Shown: positions 6,335-23,450 of the stretch, in pieces | How positions within the stretch are numbered: position 1 is the first letter of the stretch | Layout of the letters: every line of letters begins with the position of its first letter | Assembly (NCBI GenBank): GCA_964291315.2 | Contig: OZ219753.1 | Location: forward strand, 480,001 to 544,000 | DNA: 64,000 bases | Source of the DNA: Candidatus Poribacteria bacterium | Lineage (GTDB): Bacteria > Poribacteria > WGA-4E > WGA-3G | Reading direction: 5' to 3' | Translations under genes and position numbers: made by a program | Notes under the pieces: generated by a model | What the model saw: only the letters and a program-made list of their open reading frames with translations | What the model was told of the DNA's origin: nothing | Databases searched by the model: none

Positions 6335-6505
6335 TAATCAAAATTCTCCTCTTCACTCAACTAATCAGACATTCTCTCTACTTATTTAGTCTACACGATT
6401 TCTCACCGATATTCAAGCAGGTTTTTCAAGATGCCCCCTGCTAACGAACCGCTATCCACAGTCCTGATTCCCACGATCTGCCGCTAAATCTACCATATAT
6501 GCCCG

Positions 6506-8572
6506 TCAATGAGAGGGTTCCGCTTTGCGTTTTCCGACACCGATCGCCAAAGCTGGTAACACCGTTTCCGAAAGGTCAGCCGCATAGTCAAAAATTGCCC
6601 AACCTGAAGCCCCCAAATAACGCGACAAGTAGACTTGTTCAATAACAGCATCTGCACTTAGTAGAGAATTAGATGCAGTCGCACCGATACCAGGATAAAT
6701 CGCGACACTATGAGGCATCAAAGCGAGTTGAGCTGTTAACAACTCCGTGAAATAGCCCGTATCTTCGGTATAATTCATCGGACACACAAAGTCGACATAG
6801 CCCGCCTCCGCCCAAGCAATCCAATCCTGACCGATAGAAGTAACGCATGCCGGGTAACCACCGAAAACCGCTGCGGAAATTTTGATGTCAGGATCTGTTT
6901 CGCGCACACGTTTGCGCAATAAACGGACCAAACGCGTTATCTGTTGGCTCCGCCACTGAATATATCTATCGGCATATTTCCCAGTTTTTGGCAAAACTTC
7001 TGCGGGCCACTCTTCAACCCTCTCCCGGGTCGTATTCATGAATCTTTCGCGGCATCCTTCACAGTAGCACGCATGGCTCCCCGGATAACGGATATAATCC
7101 AAGTGAATGCCATCTATCTCGTAATTCGCTATAATCTCAAATACGATCTCCAATTCCAATTGAACATTTTTCGGATGCGACGGGCAAAGCCAATTGAGCG
7201 GTTTTCCGGTTGAGGATACTTGTGTCCGGCCGGCCTCCCGCATCCTCTCAATAAATTCTTGTGGGGCACCTTCCAGATTCCATGTAATCTTCCATACATG
7301 CACCTCTAACTCATGCTTTTGTGCTGCTGCAATGCATTGTGCAAGTTGATCCCCGTATTGTGAAAAAGTTTCGCTCTGTGGTAATAATTTACTCGGATAA
7401 TGCGCTACACCTGCCCATGCCATATTTGGAAAAATCATGTTAATCCCTGCACCCGCTAATTCTCTAGCAGATCGGTCCCAATCTCCCGGATACGCACCTA
7501 GTCCGGAATGATTCCACACCGCTCTCCCTTCCGTTTCAATACTGATGTGCGATAGGAAATAAGCTCTTGAAAACGCCGCACGGCTTGCACGGGCCATAGT
7601 TATAGCGGCACTGTAAGTTCGTGTTTCGTATGAAATGTCCGCCTGTCTCATCAGATTTTTCCCGGTTTCTAAAGCCTCTATTGCCTCTACCACGCCCTTC
7701 TGTTGAACAAACTGTTCCAGTTTCTCAAGGTCGTTTGTATGTCCGACAGTCGTTATTGCCCTTATTGCTCGTTCAGCGAGCGGGCGCCGAAATTCCGGAA
7801 CGAGATGTGCTAGGATTGCTCCAAGGAGCTGGGTTTTGGTGTGGATGTCGTCCGGCAGGAAAACGTGACTGAAGAAAACGCCCGCCTCGTTCATAAAAAG
7901 AGCAGGTAAACCGGTCGGTTTTCCAGTCGCATCGTGCCAGTAACCAATGATTTTTGTTCCAGCAGTCGTCGGTTCTGCCACGGTTATGTTCCAGGATGCT
8001 TGTTTGACAGATGGCGGCATGTCAGGTATTTCAGGGGCATTCAGTTGAATACTAGAAAAACGTCCAGGCGGGTCGTCTTTTAGCCAATCCGTTTGGCGCA
8101 GACCGAGAAGCGGCGCTACTGCGTTTGGGAGGTTGTAAGTTACGAAAAGCTTGCCCCCGTCTTTAACGAAGTCCTTCAAAAATGCCGCCGTTTGTGAGGT
8201 TATGCTCGGATTTAATGGAAGAATAATTAACCGACGCGATTTTAATTTTGCTTTAGAAAGCGATTCCTCTTCAAGCATGTCAGCGGGAAGCCCGATACTA
8301 TTAAGCATCTGATTGAACCGCTTGCTGACAGAACGAACGTATTGAACATCACCTGGCGACGCTCCGGATGTACCTGTGGGCAAGACAATCGCGATTTCTG
8401 ACTGCTGTGCTGACACAAAGCTGTATCCGTTAGTAACTGAGAGCAGCACACCTGCAAGGAAGATGATCCGGATGACTCCTTGCTTCTTATGCTTTGCAGA
8501 AAATCGTGGTCTCGAAACACTCTTTACTTTCTTTGATCGATTTTGATTTGCAAGCTCGGCCGAAAGCATCAC
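6506..8572 (-). CDS. GHL10/DUF187-like glycoside hydrolase with an N-terminal GATase-like domain
   Basis: EGRAVW, EVHVW, WLCPSHP, IDGIHLDYIRYP, QDW..W and VDFVCPMNY. The true start may lie downstream of the one called. Confidence 0.7.
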   Translation of the reverse strand: MMLSAELANQNRSKKVKSVSRPRFSAKHKKQGVIRIIFLAGVLLSVTNGYSFVSAQQSEIAIVLPTGTSGASPGDVQYVRSVSKRFNQMLNSIGLPADMLEEESLSKAKLKSRRLIILPLNPSITSQTAAFLKDFVKDGGKLFVTYNLPNAVAPLLGLRQTDWLKDDPPGRFSSIQLNAPEIPDMPPSVKQASWNITVAEPTTAGTKIIGYWHDATGKPTGLPALFMNEAGVFFSHVFLPDDIHTKTQLLGAILAHLVPEFRRPLAERAIRAITTVGHTNDLEKLEQFVQQKGVVEAIEALETGKNLMRQADISYETRTYSAAITMARASRAAFSRAYFLSHISIETEGRAVWNHSGLGAYPGDWDRSARELAGAGINMIFPNMAWAGVAHYPSKLLPQSETFSQYGDQLAQCIAAAQKHELEVHVWKITWNLEGAPQEFIERMREAGRTQVSSTGKPLNWLCPSHPKNVQLELEIVFEIIANYEIDGIHLDYIRYPGSHACYCEGCRERFMNTTRERVEEWPAEVLPKTGKYADRYIQWRSQQITRLVRLLRKRVRETDPDIKISAAVFGGYPACVTSIGQDWIAWAEAGYVDFVCPMNYTEDTGYFTELLTAQLALMPHSVAIYPGIGATASNSLLSADAVIEQVYLSRYLGASGWAIFDYAADLSETVLPALAIGVGKRKAEPSH

Positions 8573-11326: not shown

Positions 11327-12424
11327 ATGACTACTGATGGAAAGAAAATAAAGAAAACCGTTTTATCCATTGATGGAGGCGGTATTCGCGGTATCATCCC
11401 GGCGATGATTCTTGTTGAAATAGAAAGGCGAACCCTCGACAAGATTAAGGATTCGACAGAACAGGTCCCAGAAGGCCGCCGTGAAGAGTTCAAACGGAGT
11501 GTTAATGAGAGAGTTAAGACTAGGAAGGGTAGAGAGTTCATTCCGACTTCTGACCTTTTCGATCTGATTGCTGGGACTTCAACTGGAGGTATCCTTGCTT
11601 TGGGGCTTACCAAACCTATCGATCAAGGAGGGGGTCCTGATTACATGGCAAGGGACTTAGTTGATCTGTATCAAGAAACAGGCGGAAGCATCTTCCACAG
11701 ATCATTCTGGCACAAAATTCATTCAGGGTTTGGAATGACCGAAGAGAAATATCCAGCAACGGGAATTGAGAGTGTTCTAGAGACATATTTTGGAGAAACT
11801 CGCCTCGGGGATGCACTGACTAATGTGCTGATTCCTAGCTATAGCTTGGAGAATGGACATCCTCGGTTCTTTAAAAGTCATCGTGCTCAAGATGAAAACT
11901 GCCGAATGCGGGAAGTTGCCCGTGCGACTTCCGCCGCTCCCACCTATTTTGAACCCTTTAGAGGTTTTGAACCCTTTAGAGGACTAGTGGATGGTGGAAT
12001 ATTTGCAAATAATCCTGCAATGTGTGCCTACGCTGAGATATTGAATGTGTGTCCAGAGTCGGAAGGCAATATTTTACTTGTCTCACTGGGAACTGGGCAG
12101 TTAACTCGCGATATCCCGCACGAAGAGGCGGCGGGTTGGGGGCGCATTAACTGGATACTCCCGCTTTTCAGAATTATTTTTGATGGTGTGAGTGATACGG
12201 TGAATTATCAACTCATTCAGCTTCTGCCTCAAGGTCCGTATTATCGGTTTCAACCCAGGTTAGATATAGGTAACGATGATCTGGATGATGCTAGCAAAAC
12301 TAACTTATTGGCTCTGAGAAGGGTAGCTGAAAGACACGTCCAAGAGCATGAGGAAACATTGGAGGAGCTGTGTCGTCGCTTGAGTGAACGGTTCGTGGAG
12401 CGCTGGCTTGAGCTTGTAGCATAA
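11327..12424 (+). CDS. Patatin-like phospholipase
   Basis: DGGGIRG oxyanion loop, GTSTG nucleophile elbow, SAAPTYF and DGG. AGGAG RBS upstream. Confidence 0.9.
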   Translation: MTTDGKKIKKTVLSIDGGGIRGIIPAMILVEIERRTLDKIKDSTEQVPEGRREEFKRSVNERVKTRKGREFIPTSDLFDLIAGTSTGGILALGLTKPIDQGGGPDYMARDLVDLYQETGGSIFHRSFWHKIHSGFGMTEEKYPATGIESVLETYFGETRLGDALTNVLIPSYSLENGHPRFFKSHRAQDENCRMREVARATSAAPTYFEPFRGFEPFRGLVDGGIFANNPAMCAYAEILNVCPESEGNILLVSLGTGQLTRDIPHEEAAGWGRINWILPLFRIIFDGVSDTVNYQLIQLLPQGPYYRFQPRLDIGNDDLDDASKTNLLALRRVAERHVQEHEETLEELCRRLSERFVERWLELVA

Positions 12425-12518
12425 CCTGTTAGGTTGTGCAGTATCTCTTGTAGCATAACCTGTTAGGTTGTGCATCTGTCCAGAAACTGTGTAGCACAGA
12501 CTGACAGTCTATGCTACA
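12416..12518. repeat. Cluster of GTAG-type REP-like palindromes
   Basis: GTAGCATAACCTGTTAGGTTGTGC occurs at 12416-12439 and 12450-12473. TGTAGCACAGACTGACAGTCTATGCTACA occurs at 12490-12518. Confidence 0.8.
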
Positions 12519-12599
12519 GATATAACAACAATCCCCTCTCGTCCACGCTTGTGTTGGAAGAGAGGAACCTTAACCCCTATAACAGAGGAGTATTTACCA

Positions 12600-13163
12600 A
12601 TGAAAACGTATGTGACGATCCCGAAACTGATGATTGCCGTGCTCGCTATCGGCGCCTGCGGCTACGCCCTGCACGCCTGGAGCAAGGCACAATCGCCCGC
12701 TGAGAACCCCTCGGCTACACTGCAAGTAGAAGTAGACCTGCGGCTTATCATTGAACCCGATGCGATGCCGACTGAACCGGGCGAATCGGAGCCCGCCGTT
12801 GTGCGCGCCAGACAAGCCGCATTGGAAAGGAGTGCGCGTTTGCTGTCTGAGAAAAACATAGCGGCACCGCGGCAATCAGCATTGCTGCCGAACTACCCGA
12901 ACCCGTTCAACCCAGAGACGTGGATTCCGTATGAGCTGTCCGAGGCTGCTGATGTCAGTGTATCCATCTATTCAACGGATGGCAGCCTGGTACGGACGTT
13001 GGGCTTAGGGCATCAGGTGCCCGGTGTTTACCGTAGCAAGTCTCGGTCGGTGTATTGGGACGGTCGCAACGATTCGGGCGAGCGTGTTTCGAGCGGTGTC
13101 TATTTCTATACGCTTGAGGCGGGTTCTTTCCGTGCGACGCGTAAAATGTTAATAGTGAAGTAA
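12600..13163 (+). CDS. Small secreted protein with a FlgD-Ig / T9SS type-A-like C-terminal domain
   Basis: GAGGAG RBS before ATG 12600, signal peptide, LLPNYPNPFNPETWIPY, WDGRN and SGVYFY...TRKMLIVK. Confidence 0.8.
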   Translation: MKTYVTIPKLMIAVLAIGACGYALHAWSKAQSPAENPSATLQVEVDLRLIIEPDAMPTEPGESEPAVVRARQAALERSARLLSEKNIAAPRQSALLPNYPNPFNPETWIPYELSEAADVSVSIYSTDGSLVRTLGLGHQVPGVYRSKSRSVYWDGRNDSGERVSSGVYFYTLEAGSFRATRKMLIVK

Positions 13164-13169
13164 TCAGCT

Positions 13170-13283
13170 GTAGCATAACCTATTAGGTTGTGCATTGTAT
13201 CATATTAAAAAGAGGCACAGACTGTCAGTCTATGCTACAAGCACACAAAGGATTTACTTGTAGCCTACCCTGTTAGGTTGTGC
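13170..13283. repeat. Second cluster of GTAG-type REP-like palindromes
   Basis: Copies at 13170-13193, 13215-13238 (inverted) and 13260-13283. Confidence 0.8.
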
Positions 13284-13318
13284 CGTATATTAAACCTAAA
13301 GAATAAAGGAGAATTGAA

Positions 13319-14707
13319 ATGAGAAGGACAATGTTTGTTCTGTCAACTGTTGCGGTGCTGATGTTTTCGGTTGCTCAGTTAGCAGCGGCGCAATGGAAGG
13401 CGAACCCTGTAACGAATCAGACCAATGAGAGTTTGTATGTGATCCATTCGACGTGGCGGCCTGCGAAGGCGGGCATTCCGAGCGGGTTTCGGACGCGCGG
13501 GTATTATCGTCTGTCGGCGGGTGAGACGCGTAAGTTTTATTCGTGGTCAGATAACAGCATCTACTTCCATATCTCGCGTTCGGGTGAGGCGATAAAACCG
13601 AAGAGTGGCACGTTGACGTTTGATTTTTGGATTCATCCGCTTCGTTCGTTTATGATAGTCTCGGATGAGCTGAGTGCGGCTGTGAAGTTGTCTGATTTGA
13701 GTTATGTGAATCGTCCTCGTGCTGGTTTTGTTCGCGAGGATGGTTTTATGAAGTATCCGGGTCGTTCTGTAGTGACTATCACGTCTAGTTGGGTATCTGC
13801 GGTGCCGGAGGCGCCGGACACTGGCACTGTTGTGGATCCGCCTGTTGCTGGCAATGGTGGTGGTTCTGATGGTACGCCTCCCCCTACTACTACCCCTACT
13901 ACCACTACTGTGCCTATTGTCACTCCGCCGGATCCACCTCCGCCCGAGGGCATGGTATTGATCCCTGCGGGTGAGTTTCAGATGGGCAGCAACGATGCGG
14001 AATCTGGCACGGATGAGCAGCCCGTTCATACTGTCTACGTGGATGCGTTTTATATGGACACGCATGAAGTGACGAATTTGGACTTCAAGCGTTTTGTGTT
14101 GGCGAACCCGCGGCAGAAGAGCCGGATTCCGGACAACTTGCACAATGGAAACTACCTATATCATTGGGATGATTCGAACAACTATCCTGCGGGCAAGGCG
14201 AACCATCCTGTGAGCCATGTGAGTTGGTATGCTGCGGTGGGGTATGCGAAGTGGGCAGGCAAACGGCTGCCGACGGAGGCGGAGTGGGAGAAAGCCGCAC
14301 GCGGTGGCAAGTCTGGGCTGAAGTATCCGTGGGGAAACACGATTAGCAGCACACAGGCGAACTACGGCCGTAATGTCGGTGGGACGACTGCAGTGGGTGC
14401 GTATGCTGCGAATGGGTATGGTCTGTATGATATGGCGGGGAATGTCTGGGAGTGGTGTCTGGATGCGTATAACAAGGACTACTATTTTAGTTCGCCTTCT
14501 CGCAATCCGTTGTCAGACGTGAACACGCTATCCAATGTAGACCTGATATTAGATAACTATACACAAATAAAGTCGTCCCGCGTCTTGCGTGGCGGCTCCT
14601 GGGACACTACAGCCCAGTTCGTGCGGGTCGCCAGCCGCTACTACGGTACGCCAACGCTCACGTACGACAACTACGGTTTTCGTTGTGCGAGGTCTGTATC
14701 GCCCTGA
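13319..14707 (+). CDS. DGR target 1: signal peptide, DUF1036-like N-domain, Pro/Thr linker, FGE-sulfatase (CLec-fold) domain with a C-terminal VR
   Basis: MVLIPAGEFQMGS, HEVTN, RLPTEAEWE, GLYDMAGNVWEW and RGGSW...GFRCAR. AAGGAG RBS. The N-domain assignment is tentative. Confidence 0.9.
   Translation: MRRTMFVLSTVAVLMFSVAQLAAAQWKANPVTNQTNESLYVIHSTWRPAKAGIPSGFRTRGYYRLSAGETRKFYSWSDNSIYFHISRSGEAIKPKSGTLTFDFWIHPLRSFMIVSDELSAAVKLSDLSYVNRPRAGFVREDGFMKYPGRSVVTITSSWVSAVPEAPDTGTVVDPPVAGNGGGSDGTPPPTTTPTTTTVPIVTPPDPPPPEGMVLIPAGEFQMGSNDAESGTDEQPVHTVYVDAFYMDTHEVTNLDFKRFVLANPRQKSRIPDNLHNGNYLYHWDDSNNYPAGKANHPVSHVSWYAAVGYAKWAGKRLPTEAEWEKAARGGKSGLKYPWGNTISSTQANYGRNVGGTTAVGAYAANGYGLYDMAGNVWEWCLDAYNKDYYFSSPSRNPLSDVNTLSNVDLILDNYTQIKSSRVLRGGSWDTTAQFVRVASRYYGTPTLTYDNYGFRCARSVSP
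14574..14704 (+). repeat. DGR variable repeat VR1
   Basis: TGG GAC ACT ACA GCC CAG TTC GTG CGG GTC GCC AGC CGC TAC TAC GGT ACG CCA ACG CTC ACG TAC GAC AAC TAC GGT TTT CGT TGT GCG. Differences fall at template A positions. Confidence 0.9.
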
Positions 14708-14732
14708 GTCTTTACTACTTAACATATTATAC

Positions 14733-14757
14733 CCCACGCCTGCTATGCAGGCGTGGG
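14733..14757. other. Perfect 11-bp hairpin downstream of VR1 (candidate DGR homing stem-loop)
   Basis: CCCACGCCTGC-TAT-GCAGGCGTGGG, starting 26 nt after the target 1 stop. Confidence 0.6.
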
Positions 14758-14811
14758 CGGCCCAAAATCAGCACTTTACTTAACTGATAATTACTTATTT
14801 AATACATCAAA

Positions 14812-15159
14812 ATGCCAGCTTCCACAGTTCAAGCTGTCCCTAAACTCTACGATGTGATTATGTGGCTGCTCGGACGCGTCGAAAGATTTCCGCGCTCCCA
14901 AAAGTTCACCCTCGGCGATAGAACCATCACTCTCGCCTTGGACACCCTCGACGTGCTCATCGAAGCCACCTATACGCGAAAACGGTTACATTTACTTCAG
15001 AGAGCCAACGTGCAGTTGGAGAAACTCCGGTATCTCATCCGTTTATCTCATGACTTCAAGCTCCTCTCTACAAAACAGTACGCATACATCTCTCAAGAGG
15101 TCAATGAAGTCGGCAAACTGATAGGAGGCTGGATACGCAGCCAATCTACTGCATCATGA
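14812..15159 (+). CDS. avd: DGR accessory variability determinant (four-helix bundle)
   Basis: 115 aa and basic, with [23 protein letters not shown] and EVGKLIGGW. Overlaps the RT start (ATGA). Confidence 0.9.
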
Positions 15160-16214
15160 AAACGCACAACCGACTCTTTGAAAAAATCTGCTCTTATCTG
15201 AACCTCTACGAGGCGGCTCAGAAGGCGCAACGTGGCAAACGTTTTCGGGCGGACATCGCCCGCTTCAACTTCCACTTGGAAAAAGAGCTGTATCAGCTCC
15301 AAGAGGAGCTGCAAACACAGACGTATCGCCCCGGTGAATATCGGGAGTTCTCTATCTACGAGCCGAAACCTCGCAAGATCAGTGCTGCCCCGTATCGTGA
15401 TAGGGTGGTGCATCACGCCTTGTGTAATGTGATCGAGCCGCTCTTCGACCGGACGTTCATCTTCGATACCTATGCCTGCCGAAAGGGCAAGGGAACGCAT
15501 AAGGCGGTGGACCGGTTCACTGCGTTCAGTCGTAAGAATACGTATGTGCTGAAGTGCGACATCAAGAAGTATTTTCCTTCTATCGACCACAGCATCCTCA
15601 AGTCGCGCTTCCGCCGAAAGATCCGGGACCCAAAAGTGTTAGCGTTGATGGATCTGATTGTCGACCGGAGCAACCCGCAAGAGCCGGTGCGTGAATACTT
15701 TGAAGGCGATGATCTGCTGACCTCGCTCCATAGAAACCGCGGCATCCCGATCGGTAACTTGACGAGCCAGTTTTTCGCGAATATCCATCTCAACGGGTTC
15801 GACCATTTTGTCAAAGAAGACTTGAAGTGTCGCTACTATATCCGTTATGTAGACGATTTTGTGGTGCTTGATAGAGACAAGGCGCGGCTCCATTGGGTAA
15901 AAGCGGAGATGGCCGCCTACCTGTCTCAGCTGCGGTTGAAGCTCCATAAGCACAAGTGCCAAGTGTTTCCGGTGAAAGCGGGGACAGATTTTTTGGGGTA
16001 TCAGGTTTTCCCGACGCATCGTCGGCTCCGCCCGTCTTCGGTGAGACGTGCACGGCGGCGGTTGTGCGGCTTGAGAGATGCCTATAGTGCTGGGGAGATA
16101 TCGTGGGCGGATGTCAACCACTCGGTGCAGAGCTGGCTCGGGCACGTTCAGCATGCGGACACGTATGGGCTGCGCCGCTCTCTTTTCTCTGACACTATTT
16201 TTCGGAAGTCCTGA
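15156..16214 (+). CDS. DGR reverse transcriptase
   Basis: 352 aa with [34 protein letters not shown] (DGR-type SQ motif), YIRYVDDF and DFLGY. No maturase or endonuclease extension. Confidence 0.95.
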
Positions 16215-16282
16215 CCTATCTATTTTCAAAGCCGTGTCGCTTCCCGCCTGTTAGGCGTGAGGCACTCGAGGTTTCAAGCCGA

Positions 16283-16414
16283 ACGTCCCGCGTGTTGCGT
16301 GGCGGCTCCTGGAACAATACAGCACAGAACGTGCGGGTCGCCTCCCGCAACTTCAATGCGCCTACGAGCTCGTACGACTTCTACGGTTTTCGTTGTGCGA
16401 GGTCTGTATCCCCT
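16283..16414 (+). repeat. Template-repeat position: TR(5')/VR(3') chimera
   Basis: 16313-16330 (AAC AAT ACA GCA CAG AAC) is adenine-intact. 16343-16384 (TCC CGC AAC TTC AAT GCG CCT ACG AGC TCG TAC GAC TTC TAC) has non-A bases where other VRs have A. Confidence 0.8.
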
Positions 16415-17914
16415 TCGGATGCTGGCGATGGTGCTACCCCTACCCCTACTACCCCGCAGCAGGAGCCTCCTCCTCCGCCCGAGGGCATGGTGTTGATCCC
16501 TGCGGGCGAGTTTCAGATGGGCAGCAACGACGCGGAATCTGGTACAGATGAGCAGCCCGTTCATACCGTCTACGTAGATGCGTTTTATATGGACACGCAT
16601 GAAGTGACGAATGCGGACTTCCAGCGTTTTGTGTTAGCGAACCCACAGTGGCAGAAGAGCAGTATTCCGGACAACTTACACGATGGAAGCTACCTAGCTC
16701 TTTGGGATAGTTCTAGCAACTACCCTGCGGGCAAGGCGAACCATCCCGTGGTGTGTGTGAGTTGGTATGCTGCTGTGGCGTATGCGAAGTGGGCAGGCAA
16801 ACGGCTGCCGACGGAAGCGGAATGGGAGAAAGCTGCGCGCGGTGGCAAGTCGGGGCTAGAGTATCCCTGGGGAAACACGATTGACAGCACACAGGCGAAC
16901 TACGGCGAAAATGTCGGTGGGACGACGGCAGTGGGTACATATCTTGTGAATGGATACGGTCTGTATGATATGGTGGGGAATGTCTCGGAGTGGTGTCTGG
17001 ATGAGTATAAAGTTAAGTCATCCCGCGTCGTGCGCGGCGGCTCCTGGAGCAATATAGCGCAGCGGGTCACCGACCGCGGCGGCGGTACGTCTTCGTACGC
17101 GTTCCTCAACGTCGGTTTTCGTTGTGCGAGGTCTGTATCCGCTATAGGGTTAGCTCCTACGGGCATGGTATTAATTCCTGCGGGGGAGTTTGAGATGGGC
17201 AGCAATGACGCGGATGAGCAGCCCATTCATACCGTCTATGTAGATGCCTTTTACATGGACAGACATGAAGTGACGAATTTGGACTTCAAGCGGTTTGTGT
17301 TGGCAAACCCGCAGTGGCAGAAGAGCCGGATTCCGGACAACTTACACAATGGAGACTACCTATATGATTGGGATGATGATAACAACTATCCTGCGGGCAA
17401 GGCGAACCATCCCGTGGTGAATGTGAGTTGGTATGCTGCTGTGGCGTATGCGAAGTGGGTGGGCAAACGCCTTCCCACAGAGGCAGAATGGGAGTATGCC
17501 GCGCGTGGTGGCAAGTCGGGGCTAAAGTATCCCTGGGGAAACACAATTGGCAGCACACAGGCGAACTACGGCCGTAATGTCGGTGGGACGACGGCAGTGG
17601 GTTTGTATCCAGCGAGTGGGTATGGGCTCTATGATATGGCCGGGAATGTCTGGGAGTGGTGTCTGGATGCGTATGACGGGAACTTCTATTTTACGTCCCC
17701 TGCTCGTAATCCGCTATCAGATGTGAATACATTGTCTAATGTAGACCTGATATTAGATAATTATACACAAGTAAAGTCCGACCGCGTCGTGCGTGGCGGC
17801 TCCTGGATCAATACAGCACAGCTCATGCGGGTCGCCTACCGCAGCTCCAATTCGCCGACGTACACGGACTTCCTCAACCGCGGTTTTCGTTGTGCGAGGT
17901 CTGTATCCCCTTGA
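16292..17914 (+). CDS. DGR target 2, 5'-truncated: VR remnant, linker and two tandem FGE-sulfatase/CLec domains
   Basis: The ORF begins inside the repeat with no signal peptide or clear RBS. It contains two MVLIPAGEF...GFRCARSVS domains. Confidence 0.75.
   Translation: MLRGGSWNNTAQNVRVASRNFNAPTSSYDFYGFRCARSVSPSDAGDGATPTPTTPQQEPPPPPEGMVLIPAGEFQMGSNDAESGTDEQPVHTVYVDAFYMDTHEVTNADFQRFVLANPQWQKSSIPDNLHDGSYLALWDSSSNYPAGKANHPVVCVSWYAAVAYAKWAGKRLPTEAEWEKAARGGKSGLEYPWGNTIDSTQANYGENVGGTTAVGTYLVNGYGLYDMVGNVSEWCLDEYKVKSSRVVRGGSWSNIAQRVTDRGGGTSSYAFLNVGFRCARSVSAIGLAPTGMVLIPAGEFEMGSNDADEQPIHTVYVDAFYMDRHEVTNLDFKRFVLANPQWQKSRIPDNLHNGDYLYDWDDDNNYPAGKANHPVVNVSWYAAVAYAKWVGKRLPTEAEWEYAARGGKSGLKYPWGNTIGSTQANYGRNVGGTTAVGLYPASGYGLYDMAGNVWEWCLDAYDGNFYFTSPARNPLSDVNTLSNVDLILDNYTQVKSDRVVRGGSWINTAQLMRVAYRSSNSPTYTDFLNRGFRCARSVSP
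17021..17140 (+). repeat. DGR variable repeat VR2 (internal, degenerate)
   Basis: Homologous to the other repeats but has a 6-nt deletion and three non-adenine changes (ATA, ACC, TCT). Confidence 0.75.
17783..17911 (+). repeat. DGR variable repeat VR3
   Basis: Same scaffold, with five NNC codons (GAC TTC CTC AAC CGC) before GGT TTT where the others have four. Confidence 0.85.
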
Positions 17915-17987
17915 GTCTTTACTCATTCACGACTTAGGTTTCCAAGCTGCTACGCATGCAGCACATTCAATTTTGTTATTTGTTTTC

Positions 17988-18014
17988 AGGTGAGGCCTCC
18001 GGGCCTCGCCTTTT
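17988..18014 (+). terminator. Rho-independent terminator
   Basis: AGGTGAGGCC-TCCG-GGCCTCGCCT followed by a T run. Confidence 0.6.
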
Positions 18015-18074
18015 AGAAAATTTATGTTGTTTCAATCCGAAAAATTCTGTATAATTGTTTTAGAAAAGGAAAAT

Positions 18075-19109
18075 ATGTACTATCTTAATTCTAACCAGGG
18101 GATTGTACCACCATACATTATTGAACGCTTAGCTCAATCTGAAAACCCAGAGGTCCGTGCTGAAGCAATCGCCCAATTATCCGCTGACGCAGCGCTTCGA
18201 GCCTTAAGGCATTCGGACCCTATGCCAGATTTAACTGCAATGGCAGCACCAAACCGCCAAAGATTCCGCTGTGTGTACGACGCTCAATACACTGATCAAT
18301 TGCCGGGAACGCTTGTTCGCGCGGAGGGCCAGGATGATGTCGAGGATGAAGCCGTAAACGAGGCTTATCACTTTTCAGGAGATGTCTACGATTTTTACGA
18401 ACAAGTGTTTGGAAGAAATTCCTTGGATGACAACGGAATGGTCCTGATTTCGTCTGTACACATCACTACGCGGAACAATGCTTTTTGGAATGGAAGGCAG
18501 GCGGCTTACGGAGATGGCAATGGCTCGATATTCCAACGATTTACTCGCTCATTGGATGTTATTGGGCATGAATTTACTCACGGCGTGCAGCAGTTCACAA
18601 GCAATCTCCGTTATTATGGACAGTCCGGCGCGCTCAACGAGCATTTTGCGGATGTGTTCGGTATTTTAATACGCCAGTGGACAAACAGAGAAACTGTCGG
18701 TAATGCAAACTGGCTCATTGGCAGCGAGATTCTGGTTCCCGCTGAGGCCCCTATAACCCGGCGTGGAATCCGAGATATGGAAAACCCCGGCACCGCTTAT
18801 GATGATCCGGACATGGGAAGGGACCCGCAACCGGCTCATATGGACCAGATTTACGAGGGAACTAGGGATTATAGCGGGGTCCACATCAACTCCGGCATTC
18901 CGAATCGGGCTTTTGTGTTAACTGCACAAGCCCTCGGCGACAATGCGTGGGATGTTGCAGGGCGTATCCGGTACAAAACTATGTTAGCGTTACCCCGAGA
19001 CAGCCAATTTGCCGACTGCGCTAGGCAGACTGTTCAAGTGGCAGCAGCCTATGGGCAAGAAGCAGAGACAGCAAGCAGCCGCGGAGAGCTGGGCAACCGT
19101 CGGTGTTGA
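18075..19109 (+). CDS. Protealysin-like M4 metallopeptidase (C-terminus apparently frameshifted)
   Basis: IVPPYII propeptide motif, NAFWNG, HEFTH, GALNEHFAD and GVHINSGIPN. AAGGA RBS before ATG 18075. Confidence 0.88.
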   Translation: MYYLNSNQGIVPPYIIERLAQSENPEVRAEAIAQLSADAALRALRHSDPMPDLTAMAAPNRQRFRCVYDAQYTDQLPGTLVRAEGQDDVEDEAVNEAYHFSGDVYDFYEQVFGRNSLDDNGMVLISSVHITTRNNAFWNGRQAAYGDGNGSIFQRFTRSLDVIGHEFTHGVQQFTSNLRYYGQSGALNEHFADVFGILIRQWTNRETVGNANWLIGSEILVPAEAPITRRGIRDMENPGTAYDDPDMGRDPQPAHMDQIYEGTRDYSGVHINSGIPNRAFVLTAQALGDNAWDVAGRIRYKTMLALPRDSQFADCARQTVQVAAAYGQEAETASSRGELGNRRC

Positions 19110-19140
19110 TCTATGACGGATAAACAGAGGAGGCACTACA

Positions 19141-19446
19141 ATGAAAGTCGATTTTACGCAATCAGGCGGTTTTCTGGGGGGATGCCGCGGGTGTGAACTT
19201 GACACCGCAAAGCTGCCTGCAGACACCGGGGAAAAACTGGTAGACCTAGCAAAAGCGAGCGGAATCTCGGCATCAGGGACCTTTTTCTCGGCATCGGGCC
19301 GCGATCTTCAGCAGTATGATATTACAATCCACGATGGATACTCCGAGATATCTGTCACCTTTGACGATGAGACGCTTCCACCGGCTGTGCAACCGCTTAT
19401 CGATTATCTACAAAAACACGCTCGTCCCAAAACCTTAAAAGACTAA
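19141..19446 (+). CDS. Emfourin (protealysin inhibitor)
   Basis: QSGGFLG N-terminus and D..QYDITI. Lies directly downstream of the M4 gene with a GAGGAGG RBS. Confidence 0.85.
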   Translation: MKVDFTQSGGFLGGCRGCELDTAKLPADTGEKLVDLAKASGISASGTFFSASGRDLQQYDITIHDGYSEISVTFDDETLPPAVQPLIDYLQKHARPKTLKD

Positions 19447-19575
19447 GACTTGGGCCCTGTGTTCCTTTCCTCTAGGGACAAGCTCCTTCCCTTCGGTGGA
19501 GATGAGCCAAAGATAAAATCCGGGGCGTGGTGGCAGGTAGGCTTCCGCTGATAGCTATCACGCCCCTCTTATCTA

Positions 19576-19695
19576 CTGCCTGCAGGAGGAAACTCCGATT
19601 TCCGACGGCACAATAGATGCCAAGTCTGCTATAATAGTTATAGCGGTAGGGCGACGGCAGCGCCTTGTAGCATGAACTGGCACGTTGGGCAACTT
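19576..19695 (+). repeat. ~120-bp imperfect direct repeat, copy 1 (copy 2 at 21481-21600)
   Basis: Both copies share CTGCCTGCAGGAGGAAAC.CCGATTTCCGAC...TAGATGCCAAGTCTGCTATAATAG..ATAGCG...GGGCGACGGCAG. Confidence 0.85.
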
Positions 19696-19768
19696 AACCC
19701 TATTTTATGCCACTTCCGCTATGCAGGTGTGGGCAATCTAACAATCAACGCATAAAACGAGGTGAAAC

Positions 19769-21466
19769 ATGTCTAAATGGAAATTGACGATTGTTGCTTT
19801 ACTGAGTGTCGCTCTCTGTCGCTGCCTCCAAGCGGAAGAGACAGATAACGGAACTCCGGAGGACACCGCTCCTGCGGGCATGGTGTTGATCCCTGCGGGC
19901 GCGTTTCAGATGGGTAGCAACGATGCGGAAGATGAGCAGCCGGTTCATACCGTCTACGTGGATGCGTTTTATATGGACACACATGAAGTGACGAATGCGG
20001 ACTTCCAGCGGTTTGTGTTGGCGAACCCGCAGTGGCAGAAGAGCCGGATTCCGGCCAACTTACAAGATGGGTCTTACCTATCTCATTGGGATGATTCTAA
20101 CAACTATCCTGCGGGCAAGGCGAATCATCCTGTTGTTTATGTGAGCTGGTATGGTGCGGTGGCGTATGCGAAGTGGGCGGGCAAACGGCTCCCCACAGAG
20201 GCAGAATGGGAGAAAGCTGCACGCGGTGGCAAGTCGGGTCTGAAGTATCCCTGGGGAAACACGATTAGCAGCACACAGGCGAACTACGGCAAAAATGTCG
20301 GTGGGACGACGGCAGTGGGTACATATCTTGTGAATGGATACGGTCTGTATGATATGGCGGGTAATGTCTGGGAGTGGTGTCTGGATGAGTATAATTGGAA
20401 CTTCTATACTATTTCCCCGGTCCGTAATCCGCTGTCAGGTGCACCCAATATCAAGTGGTTATTAGATAACTATACAAATATTGATAGTAACCGCGTCTTG
20501 CGTGGCGGCTCCTGGTACCTTACGGCTCAGAGCGTGCGGGTCGCCTACCGCGGCGGCATTCCGCCTACGTTCTCGGTCAGCACCGACGGTTTTCGTTGTG
20601 CGAGGACTGTATCCCCTTCGGATGCTGGCGAGGGGACGGGTCCTGGTGCTGCCCCTACTGCTCCTGTGCCTAGTGTCACTCCCCTGCCACAGGAGCTTCC
20701 TGCTGCGCCCGAGGGCATGGTGTTGATCCCTGCGGGCGAGTTTGAGATGGGCAGCAACGATGCGGAATCTGACACGGATGAGCAGCCCATTCATACTGTC
20801 TACGTGGATGCGTTTTATATGGACACACATGAAGTGACGAATGCGGACTTCCAGCGTTTTGTGTTGGCGAACCCACAGTGGCAGAAGAGCCGGATTCCAC
20901 GCAACTTACACAATGGGTACTACCTACATTATTGGGATGATGATAACAACTACCCTGCGGGCAAGGCGAACCATCCTGTTGTTGAAGTGAGTTGGTATGC
21001 TGCTGTGGCATATGCGAAGTGGGCAGGGAAACGGCTGCCTACAGAGGCGGAGTGGGAGAAAGCCGCACGCGGTGGCAGGTCGGGGTTAAGGTATCCCTGG
21101 GGAAACACGATTAGCAGCACACACACGAACTATGGCAAAAATGTTAATGATACGACGGCAGTGGGTGCGTATCCTGCGAATGGGTATGGTCTCTATGATA
21201 TGGCGGGGAATGTAGAGGAGTGGTGTCTGGATGGGTATGACGAAGACTTCTATACTATTTCCCCGGTCCGTAATCCGTTGTCAGGTGCGCCCAATATCAA
21301 GTGGTTATTAGATAACTATACAAAAGTTAATTCGTCCCGCGTGTTGCGTGGCGGCTCCTGGCTCGATGCAGCCCGGAGCGTGCGGGTCGCCAACCGCAGC
21401 GCCGATACGCCGGCGTTCACGGGCAACAACCTCGGGTTCCGTTGTGTGTGGTCTGTATCCCCTTGA
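19769..21466 (+). CDS. DGR target 3: signal peptide and two tandem FGE-sulfatase/CLec domains, each ending in a VR
   Basis: GAGGTG RBS, signal peptide, and two complete domains joined by a Pro/Ala linker. Confidence 0.9.
   Translation: MSKWKLTIVALLSVALCRCLQAEETDNGTPEDTAPAGMVLIPAGAFQMGSNDAEDEQPVHTVYVDAFYMDTHEVTNADFQRFVLANPQWQKSRIPANLQDGSYLSHWDDSNNYPAGKANHPVVYVSWYGAVAYAKWAGKRLPTEAEWEKAARGGKSGLKYPWGNTISSTQANYGKNVGGTTAVGTYLVNGYGLYDMAGNVWEWCLDEYNWNFYTISPVRNPLSGAPNIKWLLDNYTNIDSNRVLRGGSWYLTAQSVRVAYRGGIPPTFSVSTDGFRCARTVSPSDAGEGTGPGAAPTAPVPSVTPLPQELPAAPEGMVLIPAGEFEMGSNDAESDTDEQPIHTVYVDAFYMDTHEVTNADFQRFVLANPQWQKSRIPRNLHNGYYLHYWDDDNNYPAGKANHPVVEVSWYAAVAYAKWAGKRLPTEAEWEKAARGGRSGLRYPWGNTISSTHTNYGKNVNDTTAVGAYPANGYGLYDMAGNVEEWCLDGYDEDFYTISPVRNPLSGAPNIKWLLDNYTKVNSSRVLRGGSWLDAARSVRVANRSADTPAFTGNNLGFRCVWSVSP
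20492..20617 (+). repeat. DGR variable repeat VR4 (internal)
   Basis: TGG TAC CTT ACG GCT CAG AGC GTG CGG GTC GCC TAC CGC GGC GGC ATT CCG CCT ACG TTC TCG GTC AGC ACC GAC GGT TTT. All core changes fall at inferred A positions. Confidence 0.88.
21333..21463 (+). repeat. DGR variable repeat VR5
   Basis: TGG CTC GAT GCA GCC CGG AGC GTG CGG GTC GCC AAC CGC AGC GCC GAT ACG CCG GCG TTC ACG GGC AAC AAC CTC. The 3' constant part is diverged (GGG TTC CGT TGT GTG TGG). Confidence 0.85.
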
Positions 21467-21480
21467 ACCTTATTTTTTAT

Positions 21481-21600
21481 CTGCCTGCAGGAGGAAACCC
21501 CGATTTCCGACATCACCCTAGATGCCAAGTCTGCTATAATAGGCATAGCGATGGGGCGACGGCAGTGCATTGTTGCATAACCTGCTGGGTTGTGTAACTT
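21481..21600 (+). repeat. ~120-bp imperfect direct repeat, copy 2
   Basis: Matches 19576-19695. Confidence 0.85.
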
Positions 21601-21729
21601 CAGGTCTTCTTCCACAACCTGAGAGGCTGTGCAGATGAAACCAATAATTATCAAAATCGCGTTATAATGAGCGGTAACTCAAAGATCAATAAAAAATTGT
21701 TCTGTTATTTTTCTAAAAAATATTTTTTC

Positions 21730-21758
21730 TTGACAAACGTCAAATTATGTAGTATACT
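21730..21758 (+). promoter_or_regulatory. sigma70 promoter of the tRNA-Val/Asp operon
   Basis: TTGACA, a 17-nt spacer, then TATACT, with an AT-rich upstream element. Confidence 0.75.
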
Positions 21759-21838
21759 TAATAATGTCCTTTATATGAGGTAGTGCCGAATAGCGCTATT
21801 GATACATGAATTGTTTCCGCTTCGTATCTATCTCATTT

Positions 21839-21912
21839 GGGCGGGTAGCTCAGGTGGCTAGAGCGACAGCCTTACAAGCTGTAGGTCACAGGTTCAAGTC
21901 CTGTCCCGCCTA
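21839..21912 (+). tRNA. tRNA-Val(TAC)
   Basis: Cloverleaf with anticodon arm ACAGC-CTTACAA-GCTGT and a GGTTCAAGTCC T-arm. Confidence 0.95.
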
Positions 21913-21931
21913 CCTGTTAGCTATCTATTGA

Positions 21932-22006
21932 GGGCTCGTGGCGCAGTTGGTCTAGCGCGCCTGCCTGTCACGCAGGAGGTCGCGGGTTCAAGTCCCGTCG
22001 GGCCCG
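21932..22006 (+). tRNA. tRNA-Asp(GTC)
   Basis: Anticodon arm CCTGC-CTGTCAC-GCAGG and a GGTTCAAGTCC T-arm. Confidence 0.95.
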
Positions 22007-22024
22007 TTTCTATCGTGTCGAATT

Positions 22025-22060
22025 AGCCGCACGTTGTGCCTCACAACGTTGTGGCTTTTT
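22025..22060 (+). terminator. Rho-independent terminator after the tRNAs
   Basis: AGCCGCACGTTGTG-CCT-CACAACGTTGTGGCT followed by a T run. Confidence 0.75.
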
Positions 22061-22160
22061 CATTATAGGAACAATCGCTATATATAATCCCGATCTCGAC
22101 ATCTTATCTTTTCAATACGGCTTCCTAAACAAAACTTTACAATAAAGGAGCAAAATCACT

Positions 22161-23450
22161 GTGCTCGACCTTAAATTTATTCGCGAAAATATTGTGGCTG
22201 TCCGCCAGATGGTAGCAGACCGCCACATTGACGCTGACCTGGACCGGTTGGTAGAGTTGGATACATGCTGGCGTGAAAACTTGACATATACACAGTCCCT
22301 CAAAGCACACCAAAATAGGATCTCCCAAGAAATTGCGCAACTGAAAAAAGCAAATGTGGAGACTACAGAAACTGTCGATGAGATGCGAGAACTCTCCCAA
22401 AAAATCAAAAAACTTACCGCCGAAGCCAACATTATGAAAACCGAGATAGATGCCATCTTATTGACGATCCCGAATATGCCTGAAGCAAGCACGCCCGTTG
22501 GAACTACTGAAGCGGATAACATTGAAATCAAAACCTGGGGCGAATTGCCCAGCTTCAATTTCCAACCAAAGCCGCACTGGGAAATCGCTGAACAGCTAGA
22601 TATTGTCGATTTTCAACGCGGGGCAAAAGTGGCGGGGAGTAACTTCCCCCTTTTCAAGGGGCTAGGCGCAAGGTTAGAACGAGCCTTGATTCAATTCATG
22701 CTTGACTTGCACACAACCGAGCACGGCTATACGGAAGTCTCTCCACCGTTTCTTGCCAACCGACCTACAATGACTGGAACTGGACAGCTTCCCAAATTTG
22801 AGGCAGATATGTATCGATGTGATAGGAATGAAGAGAACCCTGATAGCGACCTATTCCTGATACCAACTGCCGAGGTCCCTCTGACGAATATCTTCGCAGG
22901 TGAGATACTTTCTGCAGACGAGCTGCCTATCTACTACACGGCTTATACACCTTGCTTCCGACGTGAAGCGGGCGCTTACGGGAAGGGTACACGCGGTCTA
23001 CAACGCGTCCATCAATTTGACAAAGTAGAGATGGTAAAATTCACCACACCGCAAACCTCCTACGCCGAGCATGAATCACTGCTCACAAACGCTGAAAGTG
23101 TCTTGCAAGCACTCGGTTTGCCCTATCGCGTTGTGCAACACTGCACTGTGGAGCTCTCCTTCGCCGCAGCAAAATGTTACGATATTGAGGTCTGGGCACC
23201 TACCGCCCAAAGATTCCTAGAGGTATCTTCGTGTAGTAACTTCGAGGCGTTCCAAGCACGCAGAGCAAATATCCGATTCCGACCAGCGCCCGGAGCGAAA
23301 CCAGAGTTTGTTCACACACTCAACGCCTCCGGAACAGCATTACCGCGCGTTGTCATCGCGCTGCTTGAGACGTATCAGAATACTGACGGCACAGTCCGTG
23401 TACCTACGATCCTGCAACCTTACATGGGAGGACTGACACAGATCGCGTAA
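22161..23450 (+). CDS. serS: Serine--tRNA ligase
   Basis: MLDLKFIREN, GTGQLPKF, LIPTAEVP, FRREAG, QFDKVE and HTLNASG. Confidence 0.97.
   Translation: MLDLKFIRENIVAVRQMVADRHIDADLDRLVELDTCWRENLTYTQSLKAHQNRISQEIAQLKKANVETTETVDEMRELSQKIKKLTAEANIMKTEIDAILLTIPNMPEASTPVGTTEADNIEIKTWGELPSFNFQPKPHWEIAEQLDIVDFQRGAKVAGSNFPLFKGLGARLERALIQFMLDLHTTEHGYTEVSPPFLANRPTMTGTGQLPKFEADMYRCDRNEENPDSDLFLIPTAEVPLTNIFAGEILSADELPIYYTAYTPCFRREAGAYGKGTRGLQRVHQFDKVEMVKFTTPQTSYAEHESLLTNAESVLQALGLPYRVVQHCTVELSFAAAKCYDIEVWAPTAQRFLEVSSCSNFEAFQARRANIRFRPAPGAKPEFVHTLNASGTALPRVVIALLETYQNTDGTVRVPTILQPYMGGLTQIA

Follow-up and report, generated by a model that had tools for sequence, protein, structure and literature searches.

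The 64,000-nt stretch of Candidatus Poribacteria DNA analysed here (contig OZ219753.1, positions 480,001 to 544,000; hereafter the window) raises the question of how the template repeat (TR) of a DGR has come to run, in frame, into a target gene. A first-pass annotation, made from the letters of the window, described the element as a chimera between TR and variable repeat (VR) joined in frame to a headless target gene, and offered three explanations: namely, TR x VR recombination, a coding TR that is itself retrohomed, or a collapse of the assembly. The description was right, and of these explanations recombination has the most support; quite probably, the hybrid arose by recombination between TR and VR and identifies its cassette as degenerate, while the template of a sister cassette on another contig (C3) acts in trans. 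The host is a sponge-symbiont genome.

The window cassette, its sister copy and the TR spacer

The window holds the parts of a DGR (target, bAvd and RT), arranged with their neighbours as follows.

13319..14707 (+): DGR target 1, with signal peptide, N-terminal domain, linker and FGE-sulfatase (C-type-lectin-fold) domain (Pfam FGE-sulfatase, E=4e-65)
14574-14703 (+): VR1; 15 adenine mismatches and 1 non-adenine mismatch to the intact C3 TR
14812..15159 (+): bAvd, accessory variability determinant (Pfam bAvd, E=1e-21); 99.1% amino acid identity with the C3 copy
15156..16214 (+): full-length DGR RT (Pfam RVT_1, E=1e-21); 350/352 amino acids identical to the C3 copy
16215..16283 (+): non-coding 5' flank of the TR, also present at the intact C3 TR and retained in related Poribacteria
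16292..17914 (+): headless open frame; 41-aa C-terminal FGE stub (the hybrid), linker and two complete FGE-sulfatase domains with VR2 and VR3
17010-17139 (+): VR2; 6 non-adenine mismatches and 6 gap positions against the intact C3 TR
17778-17907 (+): VR3; 3 non-adenine mismatches and a 3-nt indel against the intact C3 TR
18024..19109 (+): M4 (thermolysin-family) metallopeptidase (Pfam Peptidase_M4 and M4_C); single copy in the genome
19141..19446 (+): Emfourin-family protein (Pfam Emfourin, E=1e-14); stop codon within the spacer remnant
19437..19566 (+): distal TR-spacer remnant; 26/30 and then 278/307 identical to the C3 sequence 3' of its TR, with a terminal hairpin at 19522-19566
19769..21466 (+): two-domain lipoprotein-type target carrying VR4 and VR5
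20487-20616 (+): VR4; 22-23 adenine mismatches and 1 non-adenine mismatch to the intact C3 TR
21333-21462 (+): VR5; 19 adenine and 2 non-adenine mismatches to the intact C3 TR

The bAvd gene lies directly upstream of the RT gene and overlaps its start, and in the RT the motifs IGNLTSQ and YVDD are visible, which we take to be DGR-typical. The RT type, the adjacent Avd, the C-type-lectin-fold targets (all of them Pfam FGE-sulfatase, with a VR at the end of each domain) and the adenine-only differences between TR and VR (13 adenine and 0 non-adenine in the hybrid) place the cassette among the DGRs. A scan of 14600-19900 for promoters and terminators found sites no commoner than in shuffled sequence.

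The genome contains exactly two copies of RT/avd and one intact TR (C3:31851-31735(-)), along with about 30 related repeats. The window and C3 cassettes share 97% identity over 3,829 nt (about 99% in the core, 87% in the left flank and about 91% in the right flank), and their homology stops at 16400. The identity is mosaic: nine differences fall in 16139-16238 and none in 16239-16342, and the RT allele specific to the window has C at 16139, G at 16163, C at 16178 and C at 16193. Outside the repeats, the differences between the two copies are not adenine-biased, which led us to reject the idea that the DGR RT had retro-duplicated the 3.8-kb cassette as a whole.

On C3, the intact adenine-rich TR is followed by a structured spacer of roughly 200 nt. 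The same order of TR and conserved spacer was found at seven distinct relatives (G011=L047, G021=L049, G022, L044, L045, L046 and L048), and at all eight examined TR loci with an intact 3' end, i.e., C3 and these relatives, the TR is non-coding and the spacer comes next. The predicted fold of the spacer comprises 57 pairs, with compensatory changes in 9, and an Rfam scan of the C3 TR-spacer returned only snoRNA hits at chance level (E about 0.4); Poribacteria would thus have a conserved structured RNA 3' of the TR that is not in Rfam. According to the accessible parts of two reports on the Bordetella phage DGR, a non-coding segment 3' of the TR is needed for processive, self-primed cDNA synthesis (PMC6182149; 10.1101/2023.10.23.563531).

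In the window, no spacer follows the hybrid: the TR lacks its 3' half, the spacer its proximal part of about 102 nt, and the distal spacer remnant is found in direct orientation 3.1 kb downstream of the hybrid, behind the M4-peptidase/emfourin pair. The GC profile of 12000-22500 does not set the M4/emfourin block apart in composition. A protein search for the M4 peptidase in 64 other genomes of the genus gave none at E<=1e-30, and the state of this block before the event was hence not recovered. A DNA search for the orthologous locus with 17915-19768 in 64 genomes of the genus gave about 100-nt terminator-like matches in three genomes with no synteny, and a metagenome scan for the TR flank with a degenerate pattern gave 0 hits. 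The comparison of related genomes proposed in the first-pass annotation has therefore yielded the TR-spacer layout at the seven relatives but no pre-event locus among the close strains and orthologous loci searched (64 genomes of the genus and the metagenome scan). An inversion model was rejected, since the genome has no reciprocal chimera (VR 5' half plus TR 3' half) and the spacer remnant is in direct orientation.

Anatomy of the hybrid repeat and the reality of its join

The hybrid TR/VR element occupies 16284-16413 and, when compared with the intact C3 TR, is composed of three parts.

16284..16342 (+): TR-derived 5' half; 5' constant block, adenine-intact stretch 16313-16330 and A-free block 16331-16342, with 100% identity to the C3 TR
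16343..16400 (+): VR-like 3' half; 13/23 TR adenines and 0/35 other bases changed
16401..16413 (+): VR-type 3' end, starting GGTCTGTATCC..., where C3 has a TR-type end and the spacer (alignments)

At all non-adenine sites, 16284-16400 is identical to the C3 TR; the 13 mismatches across 131 nt, non-coding flank included, are all (13/13) at TR adenines. The first-pass annotation had noted that every adenine is intact at 16313-16330, and indeed the whole 5' half (16284-16342) has 0/10 TR adenines and 0/49 other bases changed. Also as it had noted for TCC, GCG, TCG and TTC, codons in the 3' half differ from the AAC, ACG or CCA of the C3 TR, and read TCC, TTC, GCG, CCT, AGC, TCG, TAC, GAC, TTC and TAC. 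The 30-mer that it had reconstructed for the lost half of the TR occurs exactly and once in the genome, at C3:31766(-). Over both halves, 0/84 non-adenines are changed, and the asymmetry in adenine changes between the halves is significant (Fisher's exact test, p = 0.002). In each of six other ungapped VRs, 5-8 of the same 10 adenines of the 5' half are changed (36/60 in total), and at this rate the probability of 0/10 in the hybrid is about 1e-4 by our own arithmetic. The asymmetry is therefore not chance.

In the alignments, the 3' end of the hybrid has the context of the internal VR4. The repeat, which includes an 18-nt 3' constant block (16383-16400), leads in frame into RSVSPSDAGDG, the counterpart after VR4 being RTVSPSDAGEG, so that the shared start of the linker (SVSPSDAG) pointed out earlier holds. 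The frame itself is open for 540 codons, with an upstream stop at 16190-16192 and a GTG at 16292, and neither Met nor a signal peptide occurs within the 33 codons preceding this GTG; a signal or lipoprotein-type N-terminus is present on most full-length paralogues in the genome, as judged by eye. The target is thus aptly called headless, and the hybrid, when regarded as a VR, is not inside a complete exported target: upstream of it lies the non-coding TR flank with no signal peptide.

Could the join be a product of the assembly? Independent 31-mer-based contigs from run X1 are informative here, while X1 may be the sample of the genome assembly itself, which would make this evidence independent of the assembler and not of the sample. 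Over 16109-16268, X1 has two alleles at depths of 553 (the window-specific RT allele) and 454; a shared contig covers 16239-16342 unbranched at a depth of 1000, which corresponds to two copies and not three; and a hybrid-specific contig covers 16313-16411 with no differences at a depth of 567 (single-copy). These contigs, which span the join, bear on the coverage check suggested for 16331-16342, and X1 shows one sequence for the hybrid. Because the shared contig is at two-copy depth, X1 does not contain a third locus whose left flank is coding. An assembly artefact is unlikely for the hybrid because the X1 k-mer contigs carry it at single-copy depth. Related repeats do number about 30 in the genome, the two cassettes share 97% identity, and the overlapping ends of contigs C2 and C3 indicate an unfinished assembly; nonetheless, a collapse or false join of a true TR with a VR is scarcely credible when the contig containing the join has the depth of the RT allele and 16239-16342 is unbranched at that of two copies. 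Reads with an intact AAC-rich TR, which the first-pass annotation would have taken as a sign of an artefact, would mislead, because such reads should exist and come from the paralogous C3 cassette, not from the window locus. In runs X2 and X3, the contigs break at 16312, and no hybrid-specific words are among the matches listed, a reading confounded by paralogues; the variable part of the hybrid may differ in other populations.

Considered as a template, the hybrid lacks 13 of the 23 adenines of its 3' half, and a VR-type end that leads into coding sequence for the linker takes the place of a TR-type end and the spacer; it probably cannot serve in this role. Furthermore, when the hybrid is tried as template, every VR in the genome shows at least 6 non-adenine mismatches to it and none fits, whereas at least seven VRs, including VR1, VR4 and VR5, differ from the C3 TR at 1-2 non-adenine sites. 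Judging from these mismatches, the hybrid appears not to have been the donor for any present VR, in keeping with the earlier proposal that its changed half cannot have templated them. As a recipient, it has the VR-type 3' end and, in the 3' half only, the adenine-specific differences of a VR, and can probably still receive cDNA because this end is kept.

How the hybrid may have arisen

From its sequence, 16284-16413 appears to be a real recombinant, and homologous or homology-guided recombination is the mechanism that we infer for the joining. A TR would have contributed its 5' half together with the flank before it, and a VR from a multi-domain FGE-sulfatase target its diversified 3' half and VR-type end, the junction falling within the homology of the two repeats. 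Such a join would have cost the TR its adenine-rich 3' half and the proximal part of its structured spacer, and the target its signal peptide and first domain. The window cassette would then be a degenerate DGR copy with intact avd and RT genes and an unusable template, and mutagenic retrohoming would depend on the single intact TR-spacer unit of C3, which could still supply the template in trans. The earlier suggestion that recombination froze or reprogrammed the DGR does not necessarily follow, because the C3 cassette has an intact TR, a spacer and an RT identical at 350/352 residues.

Two observations complicate a single event. The sole stretch that must hold the crossover is the 12 nt of 16331-16342, and 12 nt is short for RecA-type recombination. 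Also, a single deletion between the TR and a downstream VR does not by itself account for the distal spacer after M4/emfourin; because this spacer survives at 19437-19566, at least one further breakpoint, or the remnant of a second, older cassette, is involved, and one deletion, as proposed earlier, may not be the full history.

A possible, if rather unlikely, history of the same recombinant supposes a live target: the crossover would have fallen in 16383-16400 and created a "naive" VR with the full TR sequence and a 3' end of the VR type, and later retrohoming, its 5' end resolved at the A-free block 16331-16342, would have mutagenised the 3' half only. This would accord with the 5' boundary of DGR mutagenesis, which is variable and set by TR/VR homology according to the accessible part of PMC5758913, and also with the adenine specificity of all 13 changes and the 3' context shared with VR4, a well-diversified internal VR. 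The breaks of X2/X3 at 16312 could come from locally variable sequence, but equally from paralogous VRs matched at 90% likeness. The six other ungapped VRs are, however, mutated in both halves, half-length tracts not being the norm here, and this history is indistinguishable here from simple recombination with a VR that had diversified beforehand.

In a close variant, which we hold to be unlikely, the hybrid is the scar of one mis-resolved retrohoming: adenine-mutagenised cDNA primed at the VR of a target would have annealed at its far end to the DNA of the donor TR rather than to that of the VR, fusing target to template. If so, the material between target and template would have been deleted or rearranged, the sister cassette would continue to rewrite the hybrid, whose 3' end is of the VR type, and the locus would be natural evidence for DGR cDNA rearranging chromosomes and destroying its own template.

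It appears quite improbable that the 5' half is secondary, i.e., that an element once VR-like throughout was restored to TR up to 16342 by recent gene conversion from C3, the tract ending in the A-free block. While the mosaic of nine differences followed by none, and a core more identical (about 99%) than either flank (87% and about 91%), would suit such a conversion, an extra event is needed, and an earlier TR x VR join is still required for the upstream TR flank and the downstream linker.

Finally, a functional new architecture, in which a coding TR is deliberately both template and retrohomed variable region, is hardly conceivable despite the in-frame fusion, the open frame of 540 codons and the intact RT and avd genes, given that the frame lacks both a signal peptide and a start context and retains just 41 aa of a first domain, that the proximal spacer is missing, that the hybrid fits no VR as template, and that the eight TR loci described above are non-coding and followed by the spacer, which also leaves the option of a TR retrohomed by design with no support.

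Comparison with known systems

The cassettes resemble a canonical DGR of the Bordetella phage BPP-1 type in their RT, bAvd, C-type-lectin-fold (FGE-sulfatase) targets and adenine-only differences from TR to VR, and also in the distinct 3' ends of VR and TR and, on C3, the structured non-coding RNA after the TR. Unlike the canonical order (target/VR, avd, TR, spacer, RT), the order here is target-avd-RT-TR-spacer, with many remote and multi-domain targets, and in the window half of the TR is replaced by VR and fused to coding sequence, with the proximal spacer gone.

We regard the window hybrid as a new variant of known DGR decay. In Thiohalocapsa PB-PSB1, degenerate duplicate DGR loci are served in trans by one complete locus, as described in the accessible part of PMC10907252; similarly to our case, that genome has duplicated cassettes and a single locus with the full set of parts, whose TR is matched at non-adenine sites by VRs elsewhere. 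Decay there is put down to transposons and MITE-like repeats, and the accessible part of that report describes no TR/VR hybrid, whereas the template here would have been lost by joining to a VR, with RT and avd intact. RT-independent homologous recombination between TR and VR is described for engineered DGR systems in the accessible parts of 10.1101/2025.03.24.644984 and 10.1101/2025.08.18.670894; there, it is a low-frequency background on plasmids in E. coli, while the window hybrid is a fixed natural product with deletion and gene fusion. A full-text literature search found no paper on Poribacteria DGRs themselves, the listed match being concerned with cold-seep viruses.

The strict asymmetry on which a DGR depends, in which the template is never altered and the VR always is, would be broken here in a fixed natural case, where recombination between template and target removed the 3' half of the one and decapitated the other. 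This would be a concrete route of decay for redundant DGR cassettes, the template being lost while RT and Avd remain intact, and the genome offers a setting in which to test whether a single TR acts in trans on numerous distant VRs.

Other Poribacteria cassettes (L035/G022, L045 and L046) also have VR-like substitutions at adenine sites along part of the TR. L045 is without RT, L046 retains RT residues 270-352 only, and a VR search in G022, in which the TR is half-depleted, gave one weak match only. Unlike the window hybrid, none of these TRs is fused to a target, and each retains its complete spacer and a 3' end of the TR type.

The hybrid repeat and its intact counterpart

The window holds a complete neighbourhood of a diversity-generating retroelement (DGR) at 12.6-21.5 kb, and its six repeat copies can be aligned over ~130 nt, with most of the variation carried by a limited set of columns. 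The features are as follows:

within the neighbourhood, small lipoprotein-like gene with a secretion-tail domain
13319-14707, target 1, with a signal peptide, an N-terminal domain and an FGE-sulfatase domain; variable repeat (VR) VR1 at 14574-14703
14812-15159, accessory variability determinant (bAvd)
15156-16214, reverse transcriptase (RT)
16284-16413, hybrid element, in frame with an open frame to 17914 that contains two FGE-sulfatase domains (VR2, VR3)
18024-19109, M4 metallopeptidase
19141-19446, emfourin-family gene
19769-21466, two-domain lipoprotein-type target (VR4, VR5)

When the whole genome (G000; four contigs, 4.4 Mb) was searched, ~30 related repeats were found together with one copy different in kind, at 31865-31735 of contig C3 (minus strand). 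This copy, an intact template repeat (TR), has the non-coding upstream flank of the window element, abundant AAC codons along its full length and a 3′ end unlike that of any VR. The 30-mer that the first-pass annotation had reconstructed for the missing template half occurs once in the genome, as an exact match inside the C3 TR. Against this TR, the hybrid has 13 mismatches in 131 nt, every one at a TR adenine, and its two halves differ (Fisher's exact test, p = 0.002).

Changes in the hybrid relative to the intact C3 TR
Half; TR adenines changed; other bases changed
5′ half, up to 16342; 0/10; 0/49
3′ half, from 16343; 13/23; 0/35

In six other VRs, 5-8 of the same ten 5′-half adenines are changed. 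The hybrid ends at its 3′ side as a VR does, and the linker after it begins like that after VR4. Upstream, the frame is closed at 16190-16192, with no start codon and no signal peptide; most full-length paralogues in the genome have, as judged by eye, a signal or lipoprotein-type N-terminus. Given the adenine asymmetry, the VR-type end, the matching linker and the headless frame, therefore, the hybrid is a real feature, and its first-pass description as a TR/VR chimera fused to a headless target was correct in every part.

A collapse of the assembly across the repeat had also been proposed, but this is contradicted by run X1, one of three sequencing runs (X1, X2 and X3) whose k-mer contigs were compared with window positions 15700-17300. 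X1 is possibly the sample of origin of the genome.

Contigs of run X1
Window positions; differences from window; depth; identity
16109-16268; 0; 553; window RT allele
16109-16268; 9 (C3 bases); 454; C3 RT allele
16239-16342; 0; 1000; shared, unbranched, two copies
16313-16411; 0; 567; hybrid-specific
16386-16502; 0; 562; hybrid 3′ end into linker

The adenine-intact and VR-like halves are thus physically joined in the data. Also, the sole left neighbour of the shared part in X1 is the TR flank and its copies are two, not three, so that a hidden third locus with a normal VR and a coding left flank is absent from this run. X2 contains an exact copy of the join to the linker (16387-16502), with half the depth of the RT, and the variable words of the hybrid were not found among the matches listed; the X3 contig ends at 16312. 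Both of these runs are confounded by paralogues at 90% likeness.

The sister cassette and the displaced spacer

RT and avd are each present in exactly two copies in the genome. Window 12578-16400 is 97% identical to C3 35563-31735 over 3,829 nt (RT, 350/352 aa; Avd, 99.1%), with the differences concentrated in VR1, the FGE domain and the 3′ half of the hybrid. C3 is not a haplotig of C4, which carries the window at 480001-544000, because sharing between them is limited to repeats. Past the TR the two loci diverge: on C3 the TR is followed by a non-coding spacer and, beyond it, by a pair of single-domain targets. The VRs of these targets (C3:29300-29460 and 30438-30598, minus strand) show 0 differences in 161 nt in genes only 93% identical overall, which points to gene conversion or duplication that is recent and postdates the last diversification. 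Separately, C3:1-13225 is 99.99% identical to C2:1-13224 in reverse orientation, and this unresolved overlap of contig ends (13.2 kb) means that the assembly is not fully finished.

Relatives were collected from three species of the genus (DNA search) and six Candidatus Poribacteria MAG records (pattern scan), two of these records duplicating contigs already obtained for two of the species, giving seven distinct relatives. The order was RT (or an RT remnant), TR and spacer in 7/7, with a TR fused to a target in 0/7. Directly downstream of the TR, the spacer is a ~200-nt non-coding element strongly conserved across eight Poribacteria DGRs (~7523-7734, minus strand, in L031, the C3 locus; homologues in L033, L034, L035, L044, L045, L046 and L048). 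Its predicted consensus fold has 57 pairs, nine with compensatory changes, and a long terminal hairpin; no Rfam family matched. In the Bordetella phage DGR, the non-coding segment 3′ of the TR binds Avd, primes cDNA and gives processivity, as described in parts of PMC6182149 and 10.1101/2023.10.23.563531. By analogy, the Poribacteria spacer is likely an RNA that makes the TR usable, namely this lineage's equivalent of the phage spacer RNA.

In the window, the spacer is absent directly after the hybrid. Its distal part is retained 3.1 kb downstream (~19437-19566, with the terminal hairpin at 19522-19566), starting within the final codons of emfourin and followed by the upstream region and lipoprotein-type target that are also found on C3 (identity 26/30, then 278/307). 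The 3′ half of the TR has been lost along with ~102 nt of the proximal spacer, and the TR 5′ half is separated from the distal spacer by block 16343-19436, which comprises the VR-like half, linker, two FGE domains, a terminator, M4 and emfourin.

M4 and emfourin (18024-19446) form an adjacent pair in single copy in the genome, and an M4 protein query against 64 further genomes of the genus gave no match at E<=1e-30, which suggests that the pair was acquired horizontally as an insert. It resembles the protealysin/emfourin pair of Serratia. Two histories fit the arrangement: insertion of the block into the spacer and then a TR x VR deletion, or a single cassette that underwent no more than a TR x VR deletion and lies beside the remnant of an older, separately decayed one. 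Cassettes have degenerated in other species of the lineage as well: in L045 avd is truncated and RT is lacking, and L046 retains only RT residues 270-352.

Origin and standing of the hybrid

The explanation that best accounts for the hybrid is recombination between a TR and a VR, the product marking a degenerate duplicate DGR cassette for which the intact sister cassette could supply template in trans. Both register and reading frame are kept across the fusion, as would follow if TR/VR homology guided the joining of a TR 5′ half to a VR 3′ half; for a partner VR diversified in its 5′ as well as its 3′ half, the crossover would lie within the 12-nt A-free block (16331-16342). RT-independent TR-VR recombination was observed in an engineered system, according to part of 10.1101/2025.03.24.644984. 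The same sequence would be left if gene conversion from C3 had later overwritten the element as far as the A-free block, as suggested by nine window/C3 differences in 16139-16238 and none in 16239-16342. It would also be left if the crossover fell in the 18-nt constant block at the 3′ end and retrohoming over half the length came afterwards, or by a mis-resolved retrohoming event. That the 5′ boundary of DGR mutagenesis varies is documented in part of PMC5758913. Partly adenine-depleted TRs with VR-like substitutions at adenine sites were also seen in other Poribacteria, a hint that TR/VR exchange recurs in the lineage:

L035 (G022), ~1510-1640, 5′ half
L045, ~1517-1660, GCCTTTCGC block
L046, ~6267-6410, several 3′ codons

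There is no sign of the reprogramming of the DGR raised in the first-pass annotation, because seven VRs have one or two non-adenine mismatches to the C3 TR, and VR3 three and a 3-nt indel, against at least six to the hybrid for every VR in the genome. Without a TR-type end and proximal spacer, the hybrid presumably cannot be reverse-transcribed productively. It may still receive cDNA, since its 3′ context is that of VR4, an internal, well-diversified VR; the intact 5′ half shows that any full-length event must predate the join, or else a later conversion. FGE-sulfatase domains occur in ~20 proteins of the genome, including some that carry 3-5 of them in tandem (e.g., C4:2728441-2733282, C4:330226-333810 and C4:1409944-1413549). 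Only ~8 of the roughly 30 VR-like repeats match the TR at non-adenine sites, and the remainder look like old or retired targets.

In Thiohalocapsa PB-PSB1, DGR loci are duplicated, only one being complete and the targets at others diversified in trans, and transposons and MITE-like repeats are given as the cause of decay (PMC10907252, in part). No description of a natural TR/VR hybrid was found in the portions of the literature searched, and a full-text search listed no paper dedicated to Poribacteria DGRs, the one listed of its two matches concerning cold-seep viruses. The hybrid represents previously known DGR decay in a new form, not a new kind of system.

As for the surroundings, a patatin-like phospholipase gene (11327-12424) with no counterpart at the C3 locus separates the DGR cassette from the old paralogous left flank. 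The DGR genes are flanked by short repeats of two families (12413-12518, 13167-13287 and 19664-19694), namely a 28-nt CTTGTAGCATAACCTG... unit with 30 copies genome-wide and a 25-nt palindromic GCACAGACTGACAGTC... unit with 73 (at <=3 mismatches), and both look like REP or MITE-like elements.
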